Positions 22,912 to 32,900 of a DNA stretch of 64,000 nucleotides are shown here, piece by piece. Origin of the DNA: Candidatus Methylacidiphilales bacterium. GTDB lineage: Bacteria; Verrucomicrobiota; Verrucomicrobiia; Methylacidiphilales; UBA1321. Every line of letters starts with the position of its first letter. Position 1 is the first letter of the stretch. A program made the position numbers and the translations under genes. The stretch spans positions 27,322 through 91,321 of the forward strand of contig JAJSLI010000108.1 in the NCBI GenBank assembly GCA_021272315.1, read 5' to 3'. Below the pieces are notes generated by a model. That model had not been told where the DNA came from. It searched no databases and was given only the letters and a program-made list of their open reading frames with translations.

Positions 22912-23701
22912 CGGGACCTGCATCCACCTGCCGCCAGAGATCAACCCATTCCTGCGGGCTCAGGTGCTCGGCGCGGCGTTGATCCGCCACGGGCAGAAGA
23001 TTCGAGAGTTTTTTGCGCCGCTGCGAAAAGCCACGTTGGACGACTTTCATAAAACTCTCACGCGCGGCGGATGGGACGAGCGGTTGCGCGCGAGGCGTAA
23101 GCTGCACGGCAACCGATTCGACTTCAGGCGGCGGATAAAAGACCGAACCGGGCAGGGTGCGTTCCAAAACGACATTGTAACCAACCTGAACGAAAACGGA
23201 AAGCGCTCCATAGGCTTTGCCGCCCGGCGGGGCAGAGAGGCGCTGGCCGACTTCCTTCTGGAGGAGAAAAAAGAGGCGGGCGGGTTCACCTGGCAGGCGC
23301 AGACATTCCATGACCAACGGCGTGGAGATGTAGTAGGGAAGATTGCCGCAAACGACGGCGGGCGCGGAGTCAAGGCGCGGAAGAAGGTCGAGAGCGTCGC
23401 CTTCGCGAAGGTCAAGTCGGCCGGCGGCGATATCGCCGCCATACCGTTCGCGCAAGAAGGCACAGAGACCGCGGTCCTTTTCGATGGCAATTAGAGGTTC
23501 TTCGCCAACAAGGAGAAATTCGGTGAGCGCGCCGAGACCGGGGCCGATTTCCACGACACGAGCACCGGGCACATGGCCCTCGAGGACTCGCCCGGCAAGC
23601 CACCGGGCAAGGTTTTGGTCGTGGAGAAAATTCTGGCCGAACTGCTTGAGCGGCCGCAGTCCGCGGGAATCGAGCGCCGCGCGGATTTCCTTCAGGGTCA
23701 T
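22904..23701 (-). CDS. rsmA: 16S rRNA (adenine1518/1519-N6)-dimethyltransferase
   Basis: KQFGQNFL, VVEIGPGLGALT, CGNLPYYIST, FYPPPEVES, FSQRRKKL. Start reset to ATG 23701 (MTLKEIR); the ORF-track extension overlaps the upstream gene. Confidence 0.92.
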   Translation of the reverse strand: MTLKEIRAALDSRGLRPLKQFGQNFLHDQNLARWLAGRVLEGHVPGARVVEIGPGLGALTEFLLVGEEPLIAIEKDRGLCAFLRERYGGDIAAGRLDLREGDALDLLPRLDSAPAVVCGNLPYYISTPLVMECLRLPGEPARLFFLLQKEVGQRLSAPPGGKAYGALSVFVQVGYNVVLERTLPGSVFYPPPEVESVAVQLTPRAQPLVPSAARESFMKVVQRGFSQRRKKLSNLLPVADQRRAEHLSPQEWVDLWRQVDAGPAI

Positions 23702-23705
23702 TGGC

Positions 23706-25061
23706 TTAGAACTGTTCGCTGACAATGTCCAAGACATCGGTATTGCTAAGAAAGCCGCGCAACTGCAGGGAGCCCTCCCCACGCGAGGCGAGCCAGGCAG
23801 GCTCTGCGGTGGCAGCCGCCTGGGTCTGGAATCGAAAGGCGGGTTGGGGCTGCAGGAGGCCGTGGGCATTGGTACTGAACAAGCCGTTGTCGTAATGCTC
23901 ACGCATCCAAGCAGCCTGTGCACGCGTGGTGGGCGGCCCACCGGGACCAGCCAACCAGAGCGGGAGAGGCGTGGGAGGCGGAGCGGTCTTCACATCCGGT
24001 GACGGCGCGGCGACCACGTCATCCGGGGTGGGGACGGGCAGCGGACCGACGGAACCGAGGCTGTAGTTGTTGGTGACCATGACGAGGGCGTCGGGCCCGG
24101 CATATTCGACGGCGGACTCGATGGCTTCATCAACCTCGGCGACTTCGTTGACGGCGAGTTTGCCGAGGTTGCGCTCGGAGGCGCGGGCAACGAGGTCGTG
24201 TTCAACGACAAGAAAGTAACTGCCGTAGTTGTGGTTGAGGCACGAGATGGCGGTACGGGTCATTTCGGCCAGCGAGGGCTGACGCGAACGCTCGGGTTGA
24301 AGGGAGTAAAAGTAGAATTGATCGGGAGCGAAAACGCCGAACAGCCTGCCGGTATTCCATGTAAAAACTCCATTAAGTTCATCGCGGCTGCGGACCACCT
24401 TGTAACCACGGCCCTTCGCCTCGTCGAGGAGATTGATGTTGTCGCGCCGGCCCCATTCGTTGGCAGCGTTGGCCGGGATGAAGTATTGCTCGCCGCCGCC
24501 CAGGATGATGTTGATGTTGGAGTAGCGCAACAGGTAGGCGGCATTGCTATAAGGCTCGGGTGTCCCCATGGTGGAGGAGTAAAAGGCAACCGGCGTGGGC
24601 TGAACAAGCGAACTGGTGGTGACGAGGCCGGTGGCGCGCTGGGCCTGCTCCGCGGCATATATGAGGGAGCGGATCGGTTGGTTGCCGCCGATGTAGCCGT
24701 TCTGGACGCGGACGCCGCAGGCGAGCGCGGTGGCGTCCGCGCCTTCATCGGGGACGGGCCGGTCGGAGTCCTGAACGCCAAGGAGGGCGATATTCCAGAA
24801 GGAATCGATGTTGAGGATGCTGCTGCGGTAGGCGGCACGGCGACGCGCATCGCCGATATTGGGGTCATCCGGATCACTGAGCAGGGGGCTGCGGCCAAGC
24901 TGCTGGCGGGCGAGATTAAGCGTGTTGAGGTCGAGGCCGTTGACGACGAAGAGAATGACGGCGTCCTGATGTTTTCGGACAAAGGCGTTGACGTAGAGGT
25001 AGGCAAAGCCCGCAAACAACGCGAGGACAAAGAGGACCGTCAGGACAATGCGCCATTTCAT
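23706..25061 (-). CDS. Membrane-anchored alkaline-phosphatase-fold protein with degenerate active site
   Basis: N-terminal TM (MKWRIVLTVLFVLALFAGFAYLYV, start 25061); AP scaffold motifs DATALACG, ATGLVTT, IILGGGEQYF, PSLAEMTRTAI, YFLVVE; catalytic residues substituted (see findings). Confidence 0.8.
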   Translation of the reverse strand: MKWRIVLTVLFVLALFAGFAYLYVNAFVRKHQDAVILFVVNGLDLNTLNLARQQLGRSPLLSDPDDPNIGDARRRAAYRSSILNIDSFWNIALLGVQDSDRPVPDEGADATALACGVRVQNGYIGGNQPIRSLIYAAEQAQRATGLVTTSSLVQPTPVAFYSSTMGTPEPYSNAAYLLRYSNINIILGGGEQYFIPANAANEWGRRDNINLLDEAKGRGYKVVRSRDELNGVFTWNTGRLFGVFAPDQFYFYSLQPERSRQPSLAEMTRTAISCLNHNYGSYFLVVEHDLVARASERNLGKLAVNEVAEVDEAIESAVEYAGPDALVMVTNNYSLGSVGPLPVPTPDDVVAAPSPDVKTAPPPTPLPLWLAGPGGPPTTRAQAAWMREHYDNGLFSTNAHGLLQPQPAFRFQTQAAATAEPAWLASRGEGSLQLRGFLSNTDVLDIVSEQF

Positions 25062-25146: not shown

Positions 25147-26415
25147 TTATAAACCGCCGTTGTAACGGAAGACCTCTTCGAGAATTTCGCAGGCGCGACC
25201 GGGGCCGTTTTCGGCGCGGATAAGTTCGCCAAGACGCCGGGCAGAGGCGGGCGCATCGCCGGAATGGAGGCGGCGAAGGGCACGACCCATGTGGAGCGCG
25301 GTGTGTTGCTGGCGCAACAGGACTTCAGCGACACCTAAGCCCTCGAGACGGCGGGCGTTGTTGGGCTGGTCGAAGGCAAAAGGGCAGGCCACGGAAGGCA
25401 CACCTGCGCGGAGGGCGTGGGAGAGAGTGCCAACGCCGCATTGATGGATGACGCTACGGGCGCGGGGCATGAGAAGTCCATATGGCGCATAAGGCAGCGA
25501 GAGAATGGTGCCGGACGGGCGTACCGGGCAGTTTGCAGAGAGGCCAACAAGAAAGATGCCGCGCAAGTCGAGCGCGTTCAGCGCTTCAGCGGCGACGGAA
25601 AAAAAGACGCCGGGGTTCTGGACGACAGTTGAACCGAGGGTAACGAGAACCGGGGGCTCTCCCTGGGCGAGAAATTCCTCAACCTCGGGCGACAGCGCGG
25701 TTGTACCGGGTGGATCGTAAAAGCAGAAGCCGGCGTAACGGATCGAGGAGGACCAATCTGGCGGACGGGGCGCGAAGTGTTCGCTGTAGAGCTGGAGATT
25801 GAGGACGCCCGAGTGGGCACCGAAGACGGCATCACGGACGGGGCCGAGGCCATGCCGGGCACGGAAGCGGTTGACAACCGGATCGACCATGACACGGGTG
25901 ATACGTTTGCCCGCCGACCAGACCAGGCGGTTGCGCAGACGGGCAATCAAGCCGTTCCCGGCGCGGCCAAAATTGGGTCCAGGCAGCGAAAAAGCCGAGG
26001 GGACGATGCCGGGGGCGAGGCTGACGGTGACCCAGGGGATGCGGGCCAGTTCCGCCGCGATGGGGGCGGGGAAGGCAAAGTGATGGGCGACCATGACGTC
26101 GTGGGCGCGCGCTTCGGGAAGCAGCGCTTCCATAACGTGATCAAAGCCGGGCGCGATAGCGCGATTGACCAACGTGTGAAGCGAGATGAGACCACCCCAT
26201 TTCATCGACATGACCTCGGGATGGTCGCGGATAAAGGTGTCGCGCGGCGGCTCACCGGTGGAAACAAAGCGGAGCCCGGCGATCCCGGTCTCAACCCTCC
26301 AGTCGGGGTGGCCGACGAGGGTGACCTCGTGACCGCGTGCCATCAGCGCTTGACCGAGCGAGAGGAAGGGATGGAGATCGCCGTGCGATCCCCAGGAAAC
26401 GAGCAGCCAGCGCAT
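25147..26415 (-). CDS. GT1 family (UDP-glycosyltransferase/sterol glucosyltransferase-like) glycosyltransferase
   Basis: MRWLLVSWGSHGDLHPFL (start 26415), VLVTLGS, YAPYGLLMPR, IHQCGVGT, PFAFDQPNNARRL. Confidence 0.9.
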   Translation of the reverse strand: MRWLLVSWGSHGDLHPFLSLGQALMARGHEVTLVGHPDWRVETGIAGLRFVSTGEPPRDTFIRDHPEVMSMKWGGLISLHTLVNRAIAPGFDHVMEALLPEARAHDVMVAHHFAFPAPIAAELARIPWVTVSLAPGIVPSAFSLPGPNFGRAGNGLIARLRNRLVWSAGKRITRVMVDPVVNRFRARHGLGPVRDAVFGAHSGVLNLQLYSEHFAPRPPDWSSSIRYAGFCFYDPPGTTALSPEVEEFLAQGEPPVLVTLGSTVVQNPGVFFSVAAEALNALDLRGIFLVGLSANCPVRPSGTILSLPYAPYGLLMPRARSVIHQCGVGTLSHALRAGVPSVACPFAFDQPNNARRLEGLGVAEVLLRQQHTALHMGRALRRLHSGDAPASARRLGELIRAENGPGRACEILEEVFRYNGGL

Positions 26416-26434: not shown

Positions 26435-27502
26435 TTAAAGCAACGCCGGTTGCTGCTGAGTGATACAATGGAACGAGCCGAGGCCCCAGATAAGATCGAG
26501 TGCGGGCCAGGCGACGACGCGGCGCGTGGGAAAGAGTTCCTGCAGGATATCGCGGGCCATGGAGTCATTGGGGTGGTTGAAGGAGGGCATGATGACGACT
26601 TCGTTGGCGATGTAAAAATTGGCGTAACTGGCGGGAAGGCGCTGGCCCTCCTTCTCGACACGACCCGGCGTGGGCAGATTGATGATATTCCATGGCTGGC
26701 CTTGTAAATCGCGCATGGCGGCAAGACGCCGGCTGTTCTCACGCAGGAGCTCATAGTTTTCGTCGGCAGGATCGTCCTCGACGACGGTGACAAGCGTGTC
26801 CGCCGAGGTAAAACGGGTAAGGTCGTCGATGTGTCCGTCGGTGTCGTCGCCGACAATCCCCTCCCCGAGCCAGAGAATTTGTTCGACGCCGAGGTAGTCG
26901 CGCAAATAACCCTCGATTTCCTTCTGAGTGAGGTTGGGATTACGGTTCTTGTTAAGCAGGCAGGCCTCCGTCGTGAGGAGCGTGCCTTCACCGTTCACTT
27001 CGATGGAACCACCCTCAAGAATCATGGACGGGGAGAAAAGGCGCAGGCCGAGAAGCTTCGCAACGTGCCGCGGAACGTCATCGTCGAGGTCGCAGGGCGG
27101 ATACTTGCCTCCCCAGGCGTTGTAGCGCCAATCGACGATGGCGAGTTCGCTTTCGTTACGGATGAAAATGGGGCCGTGATCGCGGCACCACGGTTCGTAG
27201 GCGGGGAAAGGATGGAGATGAATGCGCGAATCGACGGGCGCACCGGCCTCATTGAGCGCGGCGCGGACGCCGGTTTCGTGGTCCGGTGAAAAGACGTTGA
27301 TGTGGACGTGTTCGCCTTCGGCGAGGAGTTTCGCCAAGCCGGCCCAGAGAGCGGGGATGGCATCGAAAGCGTCGGGGAAGCTGATGCCCTCTGGCCGCGG
27401 CCAAGTGAGCCAGGTGGCGTCGTGCCGCGCCCATTCGGCGGGCATGCGGAAACCAAGATCGCGGGGCGTAGCGGCGGAGCCGGAAGCAGACGCACTCATC
27501 AT
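26435..27502 (-). CDS. aguA: Agmatine deiminase
   Basis: RMPAEW, WCRDHGP, LEGGSIEVNGEG, DDTDGHIDD, PASYANF, GSFHCITQQQP. Confidence 0.95.
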   Translation of the reverse strand: MMSASASGSAATPRDLGFRMPAEWARHDATWLTWPRPEGISFPDAFDAIPALWAGLAKLLAEGEHVHINVFSPDHETGVRAALNEAGAPVDSRIHLHPFPAYEPWCRDHGPIFIRNESELAIVDWRYNAWGGKYPPCDLDDDVPRHVAKLLGLRLFSPSMILEGGSIEVNGEGTLLTTEACLLNKNRNPNLTQKEIEGYLRDYLGVEQILWLGEGIVGDDTDGHIDDLTRFTSADTLVTVVEDDPADENYELLRENSRRLAAMRDLQGQPWNIINLPTPGRVEKEGQRLPASYANFYIANEVVIMPSFNHPNDSMARDILQELFPTRRVVAWPALDLIWGLGSFHCITQQQPALL

Positions 27503-27517
27503 AATAAAAGATCGATT

Positions 27518-28408
27518 TTAATCGATCAATCGGCGGGTCAGCCCGCCATAGGCGTCGATGCGCCGGTCGCGCAGGAAGGGCCAGTGGGTGCGGGTGACCT
27601 CGACGGTGGCGAGGTCAATTTCGTGAACAAGCACTTCCTCCTGTTCGAGACCGGCCTTGGCGATGATCTGGCCGGAGGTGTTCGCGATAAAGCTCTGGCC
27701 CCAGAACTTGATGCCATCGCCACCCACGGGACACTCGTGGCCGACGCGATTGGCGACGGCGACATAACAGCCGTTGGCGACGGCGTGCGCGCGCTGGATG
27801 GTTTCCCACGAAGAGTGGTGCGCTTCGCCATATTTTTCGCGTTCGCTGGGATGCCAGCCAATGGCCGTGGGATAGAAGAGAATCTGCGCGCCGCTCATGG
27901 CGGTAAGCCGGGCGGCCTCGGGAAACCACTGGTCCCAGCAGATAAGAACGCCGATGCGCCCGAAACGGGTGTTCCACGATTTGAATCCAAGATCACCGGG
28001 CGTGAAGTAAAACTTCTCGTAAAAGAGCGGATCGTCGGGAATGTGCATCTTGCGATACGAACCGAGATAGGAGCCATCGGCGTCGATGACGACGGCGGTG
28101 TTGTGGTAGATGCCGGCGGTGCGGCGCTCAAAAAGCGAAGCCACGACAACGACGCCGCGCGCCCGGGCCAGTTCGCTGAAAGCCTGGGTGCTGGGCCCGC
28201 CGGGGATTTCCTCGGCAAGGGCGAAATTGGCGTGGTCCTCGCTCTGGCAAAAATAGGGAGAGCGAAAGAGCTCCTGCGTGGAAATGATCTGCGCGCCCTG
28301 GTCGGCGGCTCGGTGGGCAAGCTGCAGGGTGCGCTTTAAATTGTAAACCGGGTCGGCGTCGGCCCAAGTCTGCAGGAGTCCAATTTTGATTTTTTGCGAT
28401 GCGGTCAT
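27518..28408 (-). CDS. aguB: N-carbamoylputrescine amidase (carbon-nitrogen hydrolase)
   Basis: TQELF, YRKMHIPDDP.FYEKFYF.PGD, ICWDQWFPEAAR, YPTAIGW; directly upstream of aguA. Confidence 0.92.
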   Translation of the reverse strand: MTASQKIKIGLLQTWADADPVYNLKRTLQLAHRAADQGAQIISTQELFRSPYFCQSEDHANFALAEEIPGGPSTQAFSELARARGVVVVASLFERRTAGIYHNTAVVIDADGSYLGSYRKMHIPDDPLFYEKFYFTPGDLGFKSWNTRFGRIGVLICWDQWFPEAARLTAMSGAQILFYPTAIGWHPSEREKYGEAHHSSWETIQRAHAVANGCYVAVANRVGHECPVGGDGIKFWGQSFIANTSGQIIAKAGLEQEEVLVHEIDLATVEVTRTHWPFLRDRRIDAYGGLTRRLID

Positions 28409-28528
28409 GGAAGTCTCAAACTAAAGCGCGTCGGCGGGATAGGGCAAGGGCCACCTTCAATTTTCCGGTGAAAAGTCCTGGCGGGCGGCAGTTACGTTTC
28501 GCCTAGCCACATGCCGGATGCATCATTT

Positions 28529-29584
28529 TCAGGACGAAGTGTTACTGCCGTCCGCAAGATGGATTTTTTCCTCGAGCGCCTTGAGGCGCTCCACCAGTTC
28601 GGGCAACCGGCGGACGAGGGCCTCGATCTTGAGCGCCTCGCGGATGGGTGCGGCGTGGCGTCCGGCTAAAACAGCGCCGGCGGGAACGTCTTTGTTGATG
28701 CCGGACTGGGCCGTAAGGGTGACGCGGTCGCCCACATTGAGATGACCGGCGAGGCCGACCTGCCCGGCCAGCGTGACATAGCGGCCCAGCGAGGTGCTGC
28801 CGGAGATGCCGCTCTGGGAAACGATGATGGAATGCGCGCCGACCGTGACGTTGTGGGCGATCATGACGAGGTTGTCGATCTTGACGCCTTCGCCGATGTG
28901 GGTGCGACCGAAACGGCCGCGGTCGATGGTGGTATTGGCGCCGATTTCGGCGTCGTCATCGATCTGAACATGACCGGTATGGGCAATCTTAACATGGCGA
29001 CCGGTGCGAGGATCAAAGTCGTAACCAAAACCGTCTGCGCCGATGACCGCGCCGCTGTGGATGATGATGCGGGCGCCAAGGATGCAACGCTCGCGGACGG
29101 TGACGAGCGGGTAGAGTCGTGTTTGCTCTCCGATGACAGCCTGCTCACCGACAAAACAGTTGGCGCCGACGACAACGCGCGGCCCGAGGCGGACTCCGGA
29201 GGAAATGACCGCGTGGGGGCCGACGCTGACACCTTCGCCAATAACGGCGTCGGGCGCAACCACCGCGGTCGGGTGGATGCCTGGCTCGTCCCGGACGGGA
29301 GGCGGGGCGAAAAGTTCCGAGATTTTCGTGAAGGCTTGGCTGGGGGAATCGACGATGATGCGGGTGAAGGTGAACCGGGGAGCGTCTTTGGCCGTAACGA
29401 GGATGGCAGCAGCCCGGCTTTCACGGGCGAGCATTTCGTACTTGGCGTTGCCAAGAAAGGAGATCTCGCCAGGCCCGGCGGAGCGGAGATCGTTGATGCC
29501 GGTGACGCTGGTGTCAGCGCCATCGCCGATGAGGGTGCCGCCGACGTGGGCGGCGAGAGAGCGTACCGTGTGCAGGGAACTCAT
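28529..29584 (-). CDS. lpxD: UDP-3-O-acylglucosamine N-acyltransferase
   Basis: Hexapeptide repeats, GADGFG, IGANTTIDRG, KIDNLVMIAHNV, GISGST. Confidence 0.95.
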   Translation of the reverse strand: MSSLHTVRSLAAHVGGTLIGDGADTSVTGINDLRSAGPGEISFLGNAKYEMLARESRAAAILVTAKDAPRFTFTRIIVDSPSQAFTKISELFAPPPVRDEPGIHPTAVVAPDAVIGEGVSVGPHAVISSGVRLGPRVVVGANCFVGEQAVIGEQTRLYPLVTVRERCILGARIIIHSGAVIGADGFGYDFDPRTGRHVKIAHTGHVQIDDDAEIGANTTIDRGRFGRTHIGEGVKIDNLVMIAHNVTVGAHSIIVSQSGISGSTSLGRYVTLAGQVGLAGHLNVGDRVTLTAQSGINKDVPAGAVLAGRHAAPIREALKIEALVRRLPELVERLKALEEKIHLADGSNTSS

Positions 29585-29651
29585 GTGCCTGTCCCAACCT
29601 ACCGCAGGACCGCGCCGGAGCGCGAGGTTAGAATGATGGGGTTGCCCCCGT

Positions 29652-30287
29652 TCAGGGCGAAGCTCTTACCGGGGCGGTGGAAGGCACAGCCGCACCCGAA
29701 GGCGCACCGGCGGTGGCCGGCGGTGCGTTAAGGTTCAACTGCCGGATGATTTCATCCGTGATGTCGGTGAGCTTGCTGGAATTAAAGAGGATGACGGGAA
29801 GGCCGCTGGAGGCGGAAGCACTGGACTTATCGACCACGATGTCAAAGCCTTGCGGACCCGAGTAATCGTCCACAACCTTGGTGATTTCATCGAGGATTTC
29901 CTTGTGACGGCGCATGACCTCGTCCTGAATTTCGCGTTCGCGCTCCACCTTGGTCTCCTGAATCTTGTTCTGCAAAGTAATCAGATCCTGCTGTTTCTGC
30001 TGGAGGGCCGTGCCCTTGTCTCTTTGGGCGGCGGGGGAGAGGGTGGGATCGTGGGAGGCGTCGTAAAGGTGCTTGGCTTCCTCCTGCATGTTCTCGTATT
30101 CGGTGGTGAGATCGGTCAAATCCTTTTGGGCCGCCTCTTCCTTTTCCTTGATGCGGGCCTCGGCATCCTTGGTTTTGTAGTAGGAATCAAAAGCCTTGCC
30201 GAGATCGATGACGGCAACTTTCAAATCGGCCGAAGCCATCGAAATGGGTGCAAGGACGAGCAAACAGAGGAGCAGTAACTTATTCAT
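29652..30287 (-). CDS. skp: OmpH/Skp periplasmic chaperone
   Basis: Signal peptide, KVAVIDLGKAF, long coiled coil, GFDIVVDK, DITDEII; lies between bamA and lpxD. Confidence 0.9.
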   Translation of the reverse strand: MNKLLLLCLLVLAPISMASADLKVAVIDLGKAFDSYYKTKDAEARIKEKEEAAQKDLTDLTTEYENMQEEAKHLYDASHDPTLSPAAQRDKGTALQQKQQDLITLQNKIQETKVEREREIQDEVMRRHKEILDEITKVVDDYSGPQGFDIVVDKSSASASSGLPVILFNSSKLTDITDEIIRQLNLNAPPATAGAPSGAAVPSTAPVRASP

Positions 30288-30302
30288 GAGCGGAGAAGCC
30301 TT

Positions 30303-32900
30303 TCAAAATTGGTAGCCGACGTCAAAACTAAACTTGCCGGTATTGGAATGATTCCAGCCCTGGTCCTTGTACGGGATGCCGTAATCGAGACGCAGGGGGC
30401 CGATGGGGAGATTGAGGCGCAAGCCGACGCCGGCGGCCATGTTCATCTCTTCCCAGGCATCGGTGTACTCGAAGGGACGGGCATCGAGGAAGCCCATGTC
30501 GTTCCAGACCGCGCCACGGACGCGGTCAATGATCGGGAAGGTCAATTCAATGTTGGAATAGGCCATCGTGTCGCCGCCCAGCGGCTGTTGGTTGTCGTCG
30601 ATCGGACCGATATCGTAATTACCAAAGCCGCGCACGGTGTTGCCGCCGCCGAGGAAGAAGCGGTCAAAGAGGGGCACTTCCGTGCTGTTGCCATACCAGT
30701 CGGCCACACCGGTCGACACGGCGGTCAGGAGGATGAGGTCGTAGGGTAGCGGGAAGTATCTCTTCACCGAGGCCTGGAGCTTGTAGATGTTGGTCTGGCC
30801 CCAAAGCGGGCCACCGGCCAGAGTGGCGGTGATGTCCGCGCGCACGCCGCGCCGCGTCAGCAGAACGCTGTCGCGATTGTCGTAGGCCATGCCCATGGTG
30901 ATGGAGCTTTCACTGCGATAGCCCTGTTCCGCAAGCAACTGGGGGGAAGCACCGGATTGCATGTCGTAGATATCGAACTCCTGGAGGGTGTACCCAACGC
31001 TGCCGCTCCAGAAGGGACCAAAGGCACGGGCCAGGCTGACGGAGGCGCCGTAGTTGCGCTCGTTGTAGTAGGTCGAGAGATAGCTGGCGTTGTGGTAGAA
31101 GAGGTTGTACCCGAGGGAAAGCTGCTGTTCGAGAAACCAGGGTTCCTTGAACTCGACTTCGACGTCCTGACGCTCGAGGCCGTACTGGAGACGAATGCGG
31201 AATTTCTCACCGCCACCGGTGAAGTACGGGAAGTTAAAGAGGTCGAAGTTGCCCTGGCTGATTTCGACAAAGCCGAGGAGGCTGTCGACCGAACTGAAGC
31301 CGGCGCCAAAAGTGATCGATCCGGTGCGCTTTTCCTCAACCGTGACGACCATGTTTTTGCGGTTGGCTACGGTGGTGTCCTGGGGCGAGATGTCGACCTT
31401 CTCGAAGTAGCCGAGGTTCTCGAGGCGCTTCTTGCTGGCATCGGCTTTCACGCTGTCGTAGATCTCTCCCGGGTGGACGAGTATCTCGCGGCGGATGACT
31501 TTGTCCTTGGTGCGGTTGTTGCCCTGGATGATGATCTGTTCGACGTAGGACTGGGATTTCTCGTCGATCTGGTAGAGGATGTCAATCTTGCCGCTGTTCA
31601 CGTTGGGCGTGCGCACCGGGGTGATGTCCGTTTCAATATAGCCTCGCGTACCGTAGAGATCGCGAAGGCGCTTGATATCGTTGTTAAGGGTCGGGAGTTC
31701 CTCGTTGGGTTCCTTGTTTTCGGGCGTGTAGCCCTGCGGGGCGTAAACCTTGCCCTCATCCATGCGGATGTTCTTGAAACCGCGGTAGGTGCGCAATTCG
31801 TCCTTGGTAAAAATGGTGTTGCCGGTGAAATCGATCTTGCCGACGGTGTACTGGATGCCCTCGAAGACGGTGATGGTAACAGTCATCAAGCCCTTCTGCG
31901 GATAGGTGAACTTGACGTCTTTGACCGCCATGTCGATGTAGCCCTTGCTGTAGTAATAGTCGCGGAGATTTTCGAGGTCCTGGCGGAAGTCATCTTCCTT
32001 GAAGAGGCCCGATTTGTTGATGAAGGAGAACATGTTTTTCTTGCGCGTCTTCAAGATCTTGCGCAGCTCCTTCGTGGTGAGGTTCTGATTGCCCACGAAG
32101 TCGACTTCCGTGACGTAATCACGATCCCCCTCGTTGATGATGAAAGTAACGACGGAGCGTCCGAAGTCCTCGTTGGTGTCAATCTTGTAGCTGACCTGCA
32201 CCTGGCTGTAGCCCTTGCCAAGATAGAGATCCTTGATCTTGTCGGCGTCGGTGGAGACTTGCTGCTCACTAAGGGAACTGCCGATCTTGCTTTTGATTTC
32301 CTTTTTGACCCGCGATTCCTTGATTTTGTTCGCGCCGGTGATGACGATTTCCTTCACCAGCGGCTTGGGCTCGACCACGACGTTGACTTTGACGCCGTCG
32401 CCGAGAGGCTCATCCTTGATGGCCAGATTGGTGAAAAAGCCCGTGGCATAGAGATTGCGGACATCTTCCTCAACCGAGTTGGCCGAGTAGGGTTGCCCGA
32501 CGGTGGTGCGCATATTGGAAAGGATGACGGCCTTGGAAACCGTCTTCGGACCGATGTATTGAATGTCGATTTCACGGACGATGGGGCCGTTTTCCGCGGG
32601 ACCGGGCGCCTGGGTGTCGGGAGCCCCGACGATTTTCTTGACCCGGCCATTCGGGCCAACCTGCGGAGGAGTTGTATTATCGGTTGCCGGCGGGGTCGCG
32701 CTTGGGTTCTGATCCGGCGAAACAGGTGTGGCTGTGGTGCCAGCCGGCGTAGCGGGTGTGGCAGACTGCGCAGGAGCGTTGGCGTCGGGAGAATTGGTCG
32801 TCTGAGGGAAGGCACCCTCGGACGGAAGAAGGAAGATGAGAAGGAGCGCCAAGGATCTGGCAACCCAAGATCGTCTCATTCGTCCAGTAAAATGTTTCAA
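30303..32900 (-). CDS. bamA: Outer membrane protein assembly factor BamA
   Basis: POTRA repeats, RTKDKVIRRE, LENLGYF, FFLGGGNTVRGF, LNLPIGPLRLDYG, C-terminal FDVGYQF; Pro/Ala/Thr-rich linker after the signal peptide. Confidence 0.95.
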   Translation of the reverse strand: MKHFTGRMRRSWVARSLALLLIFLLPSEGAFPQTTNSPDANAPAQSATPATPAGTTATPVSPDQNPSATPPATDNTTPPQVGPNGRVKKIVGAPDTQAPGPAENGPIVREIDIQYIGPKTVSKAVILSNMRTTVGQPYSANSVEEDVRNLYATGFFTNLAIKDEPLGDGVKVNVVVEPKPLVKEIVITGANKIKESRVKKEIKSKIGSSLSEQQVSTDADKIKDLYLGKGYSQVQVSYKIDTNEDFGRSVVTFIINEGDRDYVTEVDFVGNQNLTTKELRKILKTRKKNMFSFINKSGLFKEDDFRQDLENLRDYYYSKGYIDMAVKDVKFTYPQKGLMTVTITVFEGIQYTVGKIDFTGNTIFTKDELRTYRGFKNIRMDEGKVYAPQGYTPENKEPNEELPTLNNDIKRLRDLYGTRGYIETDITPVRTPNVNSGKIDILYQIDEKSQSYVEQIIIQGNNRTKDKVIRREILVHPGEIYDSVKADASKKRLENLGYFEKVDISPQDTTVANRKNMVVTVEEKRTGSITFGAGFSSVDSLLGFVEISQGNFDLFNFPYFTGGGEKFRIRLQYGLERQDVEVEFKEPWFLEQQLSLGYNLFYHNASYLSTYYNERNYGASVSLARAFGPFWSGSVGYTLQEFDIYDMQSGASPQLLAEQGYRSESSITMGMAYDNRDSVLLTRRGVRADITATLAGGPLWGQTNIYKLQASVKRYFPLPYDLILLTAVSTGVADWYGNSTEVPLFDRFFLGGGNTVRGFGNYDIGPIDDNQQPLGGDTMAYSNIELTFPIIDRVRGAVWNDMGFLDARPFEYTDAWEEMNMAAGVGLRLNLPIGPLRLDYGIPYKDQGWNHSNTGKFSFDVGYQF

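Follow-up and report, generated by a model that had tools for sequence, protein, structure and literature searches.

A membrane-anchored alkaline phosphatase homologue of Verrucomicrobiae that has probably become a non-catalytic pseudoenzyme

The 64,000 nt stretch analysed here (the window, contig JAJSLI010000108.1 of a Candidatus Methylacidiphilales bacterium) carries an open reading frame that is homologous to alkaline phosphatase (AP) and in which the active site residues appear to be replaced. This raises the question of whether the gene is a decaying phosphatase, an enzyme with a different activity, or a protein that is maintained for a role without catalysis. A sequence-only reading of the locus had favored the last of these, a pseudo-enzyme kept for binding, scaffolding or sensing in the periplasm. 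The coding sequence (PF00245, protein P0002, 451 aa) lies on the minus strand at 23706..25061, with an ATG at 25061..25059 and a TAA at 23708..23706, and the frame is intact for 451 codons, as that reading had it. A longer frame of 542 codons, present in a mechanically produced list of open reading frames, was discarded because all orthologues start at MKWR. The two neighbors that had been proposed are also found. The rsmA/ksgA gene (16S rRNA dimethyladenosine transferase, PF00398, 22904..23701, minus strand) begins 4 nt 3′ of the AP homologue, the spacer to its ATG at 23701 being GCCA. A GT1-family glycosyltransferase gene (25147..26415, minus strand, likely start ATG 26415) ends 85 nt 5′ of it, an adjacency seen at the genus level only.

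The protein matches Pfam PF00245, its sole Pfam match, with 141.7 bits (cut-off 24.4), over residues 80–334 only. The NCBIfam PhoA equivalog PRK10518 gives 59.8 bits and does not reach its cut-off of 540. Structure prediction, a check that the sequence-only reading had proposed, gives the AP alpha/beta fold: an AlphaFold2 model made from 54 aligned family members has a mean pLDDT of 84.4 and a pTM of 0.83. Low confidence is limited to residues 55–82 and to a Pro-rich loop of variable length at residues 340–378 (23928..24044, minus strand), which occupies the position of the AP crown insert. When the model is compared with the PDB by Foldseek, the top 50 matches are all APs (E = 1e-26 to 1e-20, TM 0.6–0.8 on the target), spanning human TNAP and the shrimp, rat, Vibrio, Thermus, E. 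coli and TAB5 enzymes.

Residue equivalences come from an alignment of E. coli K-12 PhoA with the window protein, other dead relatives and five canonical APs, and phmmer alignments to the Thermus AP 7kwd and the Vibrio AP 3e2d agree with them. The Zn1 ligands D327, H331 and H412 are replaced by A292, E296 and A417; the codons E287..A292..E296, equivalent to PhoA E322..D327..H331, are at 24174..24203 and A417 is at 23811..23813 (here and below, minus strand). The Zn2 ligands D51, D369 and H370 are replaced by N41 (24939..24941), N332 and Y333 (24063..24068), D51 being the ligand that PhoA shares between Zn2 and the Mg site. At 24744..24749, the D105-E106 pair corresponds to PhoA D101-S102, so that the Asp is retained and the nucleophilic Ser has become Glu. 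The phosphate-binding R166 is T167, and the clade described below has no Arg conserved there; K328 is R293. In the Mg site T155 and E322 are retained as T156 and E287, and D51 and D153 are changed to N41 and Q154 (Q154-P155-T156 = PhoA D153-A154-T155, 24594..24602); the Mg-site positions vary across 51 dead representatives of the clade. The PhoA and phmmer alignments thus bear out all of the motif substitutions that had been listed from the sequence (D51, S102, D327, H331, D369 and H370) as well as the survival of the T155 and E322 equivalents, and they add two losses, R166 to T167 and H412 to A417. With its nucleophilic Ser, its phosphate-binding Arg and both of its zinc sites lost, the protein is predicted to be unable to act as a phosphomonoesterase.

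A search of 1.84 billion cluster representatives gave 4,357 matches. Among the best 150 of these, motif extraction separates canonical APs from dead relatives. The canonical sequences carry GDGMG, TDSAAA, HATPA, IDxxxH and DH and match only residues of about 80–340, and the dead relatives match over their full length, are about 400–445 aa long and have an N-terminal membrane helix. In trees of dead and canonical APs (FastTree with 117 representatives, IQ-TREE with 88), 57 representatives without zinc ligands make up one side of a branch with a support of 100 and a length of 0.40, and the window protein falls inside this group. A single dead clade with such support indicates one ancient loss, and the clade is explained most simply by one ancient catalytic loss followed by diversification. 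Two sequences with Ala at the nucleophile position, P0217 and P0224 (signatures DADHDH and GADHPH), are situated within the canonical AP clade and are independent partial degenerations. No domain fusions of the dead homologue were found; the long relatives are canonical APs or of another type.

Within the clade the former catalytic positions differ from one subclade to another. Across the 51 dead representatives the nucleophile position shows A (9), S (9), E (7), P (6), T (6), D (4) and others, the D327 position A, G, R, E or T, and the D369 position P, T, D, G or R. What is conserved across the clade consists of glycines, residues of the hydrophobic core, D105, R142 and a W369-x-x-G-P motif; the clade-conserved W369-L-x-G-P-G terminates the Pro-rich loop. 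Such free drift at the former catalytic positions argues against a new shared active site, and residue conservation among the 51 representatives shows no sign of a replacement site common to the clade. Ser or Thr is still found at the nucleophile position in 15 of the 51, in which the zinc ligands are gone, and this suggests that the metal sites were lost before the nucleophile.

The loss of all the catalytic residues might also be expected of a decaying gene, or of an annotation artefact of a former phoA, and in one relative (G011, locus L033) the gene is split over several frames. However, all of the genes of the L033 locus are fragmented, so that assembly errors rather than decay appear to account for the broken gene. 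Elsewhere the frame is intact, in the window, in all 14 of the orthologous coding sequences compared and in more than 100 homologues overall; the frameshifted orthologues that had been named beforehand as a sign of simple decay were not seen among them. The sharing of the substitutions among orthologues and a dN/dS below 1, both proposed as checks, are likewise found. The substituted motifs are common to the 120 closest homologues (67–89% identity, about 450–470 aa), with D105 in 120 of 120, A292 in 118, Y333 in 117, E106 in 116 and N41 in 108, and at these identities such sharing shows that the substitutions are not due to chance. Against the 14 orthologous coding sequences, at the genus level, dN/dS (Nei-Gojobori) is 0.08–0.24, and the closest orthologue pairs have a dS of 0.58–0.93 and an omega of 0.11–0.19. 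The clade is also old, comprising at least 57 clusters at 50% identity. The intact frames and the dN/dS values rule against simple decay, which was rejected and would be extremely improbable.

The distribution was determined with a profile built from the 51 dead representatives, whose scores are bimodal (at least 400 bits for the dead clade, 213 or fewer for canonical APs). Of 401 genomes sampled evenly across the phylum, 10 carry the dead homologue, all of them in the class of the window genome; with the clade profile none was found in the other classes of this sample. Within the window's order it is present in 32 of 50 high-quality genomes and was not found in two genera with genomes of 2.2–2.8 Mb and in three other genera. 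In a complete genome of this order that lacks the gene, no remnant is found upstream of rsmA. In the order of genome G087, 98 of 119 high-quality genomes give a match at 1e-62, and in about 95 of these the match is full-length with at least 370 bits. The homologue was not found there in one family (f86, 0/12) or in two 0.9-Mb genomes, and family f19 has it in 13 of 13. Most genomes that carry the gene have a single copy. The dead clade is a near-core, usually single-copy gene of two Verrucomicrobiae orders, but since it was not found in some lineages of both it is not universally required. The group names Methylacidiphilales and Chthoniobacterales are used here as labeled in the source records. 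A wide distribution in the phylum, suggested by matches at 1e-40 to 1e-57, was rejected on motif inspection, which showed these to be canonical exported APs; similarly, more than half of a locus set collected by pattern consisted of canonical Parvularculaceae APs. In the window's own genome, which is 91% complete, the dead homologue is the sole PF00245 match, and no canonical PhoA, PhoD (PF09423) or PhoX (PF05787) match was found there.

The gene order on the minus strand of the window is rplI, bamA, skp, lpxD, aguB, aguA, GT1, the AP homologue and rsmA. The rsmA gene is found directly 3′ of the homologue and on the same strand in 22 of 22 related loci, i.e. those that extend far enough to show the downstream gene, with AP-homologue identities down to 33%, and in most of the 22 the gap is less than 30 nt. 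The pair recurs in locus L129. In a distant subclade (L132 / L133, 5005–8348, plus strand) the order is Ppx/GppA, dead homologue, rsmA and a NUDIX gene; the last position resembles that in the E. coli ksgA-apaG-apaH cluster, in which ksgA is likewise followed by a dinucleoside-polyphosphate hydrolase. In L130 (G030:C23, 488–2673) rsmA adjoins the homologue convergently; elsewhere in the window's order the two are co-oriented. The linkage to rsmA argues for housekeeping expression of the homologue, without indicating a mechanism.

The upstream neighbor varies among loci (GT1, lpxD and others). In the window, at 26435–32900 on the minus strand, the outer-membrane biogenesis genes bamA-skp-lpxD precede two putrescine genes, aguB (CN_hydrolase) and aguA (agmatine deiminase), after which comes GT1, and in L017 lpxD lies directly before the homologue and rsmA, with GT1 and aguA situated elsewhere. 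As the linkage of GT1, aguA, aguB, lpxD, skp and bamA is at the genus level only, these genes were rejected as partners. The pair with rsmA is absent from the Chthoniobacterales-type clade. There, the f19 family loci and two more contigs, of uncertain family, have the homologue divergent from gpmI, and other loci have aspS, rpoN or ilvD next to it, the neighbors being unrelated housekeeping genes. One Chthoniobacterales-type locus (L120, 6381–7902, minus strand) shows gpmI as two overlapping open reading frames of 112 and 409 aa, a frameshift or an assembly error. Further neighbors of the dead homologue are Ppx/GppA, a low-molecular-weight phosphotyrosine phosphatase and an LplT-Aas-like fusion. 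The fusion, upstream of the homologue in L025 (4467–7928, plus strand), is a 1153 aa chain of MFS transporter, acyltransferase and AMP-binding enzyme, and looks like the LplT-Aas lysophospholipid recycling system in one protein. No partner gene is conserved across the dead clade among the loci compared, and since the pairing with rsmA is confined to one order it appears to be an operon habit of the window's order.

The N-terminal transmembrane anchor that had been read from the sequence is also apparent. Residues 5–27 (24981..25049, minus strand) are hydrophobic, with a mean Kyte-Doolittle value of 2.43, and the AlphaFold2 model shows one membrane helix, at residues 3–28. Among close homologues, entropy along the protein is lowest in the blocks of residues 16–45, a region that takes in strand beta-1 and the C-terminal half of the helix. 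Clade-wide the entropy of the helix is 2.14 versus 2.2 overall, i.e. the helix is conserved to the same degree as the globular domain; of the 51 dead representatives, 44 carry R4 and 50 carry F16, and Y23 is conserved as well. Neither a cleaved signal peptide nor a passive anchor shows conservation of this kind, which indicates that the helix remains on the mature protein as an uncleaved anchor, and that it probably has a specific contact, with a membrane partner. With a linker of only about six residues between the helix and beta-1, the AP domain would sit on the membrane surface.

The side of the membrane on which the domain lies is less clear-cut, and the periplasmic location claimed from the sequence stands in part. 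In its favor, all of the canonical AP relatives inspected carry Sec or TAT export signals, and for this reason a periplasmic domain is favored. The charge bias across the helix is small, however, and supports this orientation weakly: the mean net charge in 51 members is +1.9 on the N side versus +1.4 over the first 15 residues C-terminal to the helix, and the charge of the N side exceeds that of the C side in 21 members, matches it in 19 and falls below it in 11. A domain facing the cytoplasm (N-out, C-in) and working with cytoplasmic housekeeping or phosphate-metabolism proteins would fit the positive charges to either side of the helix (R29 and K30, and a clade-conserved Lys-Pro just after the helix), the 11 of 51 members with a more positive C side, and the neighboring genes, which encode the cytoplasmic enzymes rsmA, Ppx/GppA, NUDIX and gpmI. 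But the N side is at least as positive as the C side in 40 of the 51, the MKWR N-terminus resembles the n-region of a signal peptide, and it is unfavorable to translocate a tail that carries two positive charges. With the export signals of the canonical relatives also against it, a cytoplasmic domain seems rather unlikely, though a real minority possibility, and the AP domain probably faces the periplasm. The likelihood given to the cytoplasmic orientation is independent of that given below to a new catalytic activity.

Such an activity would require that the pocket has been remodelled to catalyze a different reaction. An acidic pocket survives in the window's lineage (N41, D44, D105, E106, T156, E287 and H288), and a repurposed enzyme might use D105, E106, N41, D44, E287, H288, N331, N332 and Y333, possibly together with a single Mg2+ or Ca2+ bound at what is left of the AP Mg site; the T156 and E287 remnants make a single divalent-metal site and some activity possible. 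The retention of the T155 and E322 equivalents, the invariant D105 with E106 in 116 of 120 close homologues, an Asp, Glu or His at position 287 in 46 of the 51 clade representatives and the strong selection over the whole protein are consistent with this. Clade-wide, however, no pocket residue is conserved, position 41 being Pro in 16 of 51 and position 156 Gly in 14 of 51, and even in close relatives the former catalytic positions are only averagely conserved (percentiles 15–69). To our knowledge, all catalytic members of the AP superfamily combine a metal site with a nucleophile that is Ser, Thr or formylglycine. A repurposed enzyme is therefore considered improbable.

The predicted AP fold, the lost catalytic set, the purifying selection and the intact orthologues support the pseudo-enzyme interpretation, and the window protein is quite probably a maintained, functional, non-catalytic pseudoenzyme on the membrane. 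It would be a single-pass membrane protein, the globular part of which keeps the PhoA-type fold and no longer binds zinc or phosphate. Its role would most likely be one of binding or scaffolding, carried out without catalysis by a module held directly on the cytoplasmic membrane, with the AP domain most likely on the periplasmic side, as in the exported proteins from which it descends. The conserved transmembrane helix is probably in contact with a membrane partner, and in the window's order the gene would be expressed jointly with rsmA, in the manner of a housekeeping gene. By analogy, the clade could represent a core factor of the membrane or envelope that is specific to this lineage of soil Verrucomicrobia, in which the AP fold serves as a ligand-binding or sensing module and the helix signals to a membrane partner in a YejM/LapC-like manner, but this is speculative and rather improbable as a specific proposal.

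No published description of a verrucomicrobial dead AP family was found in the literature searched, and the clade is, as judged from sequence and phylogeny, apparently a large, old pseudoenzyme family of single origin without a description found in print. Source records in JGI and NCBI call its members alkaline phosphatase. Of 8,000 candidates scored in a profile search, 2,798 proteins match at E <= 0.001; they belong to Chthoniobacterales and Methylacidiphilales-type bacteria, groups that are abundant in soils, and misnamed members would thus affect phosphatase gene counts in soil metagenomes. As the sole "alkaline phosphatase" of the window's genome is a dead one, gene-centric estimates of organic-phosphorus scavenging would count a non-phosphatase. 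The gap in clade-profile scores, or the missing D-S nucleophile together with the missing DH and HT motifs, offers a simple annotation filter. Near-core in two orders, with a conserved helix and descended from one of the best-understood enzymes, the family may also offer a clean system in which to ask why a dead AP fold is kept.

Compared with the PhoA-type APs (PF00245; 1ALK/1ED8, 7KWD, 3E2D, 2IUC, 7YIV), the window protein shows clear homology, the same predicted fold and collinear core structural motifs. The Ser nucleophile, the Zn1 and Zn2 ligands and R166 of these enzymes are all replaced, a conserved membrane helix that appears uncleaved takes the place of the signal peptide, and a disordered Pro-rich loop that of the crown insert. 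A different comparison is offered by YejM (PbgA, LapC) of Enterobacteria, an inner-membrane protein that regulates LPS synthesis, carries an AP-superfamily domain in the periplasm and retains a metal site, with a reported Mg-dependent phosphatase activity (PMC7576196). In both proteins an AP-superfamily domain is tethered to the cytoplasmic membrane, and the main role of YejM is thought to be regulatory rather than metabolic. However, YejM has five membrane helices and an arylsulfatase-like periplasmic domain, whereas the window protein has one predicted helix and a PhoA-type domain, and no sequence relation between the two is seen beyond the AP superfamily. Thus the dead homologue may work somewhat like YejM/PbgA/LapC but is not a member of that family.
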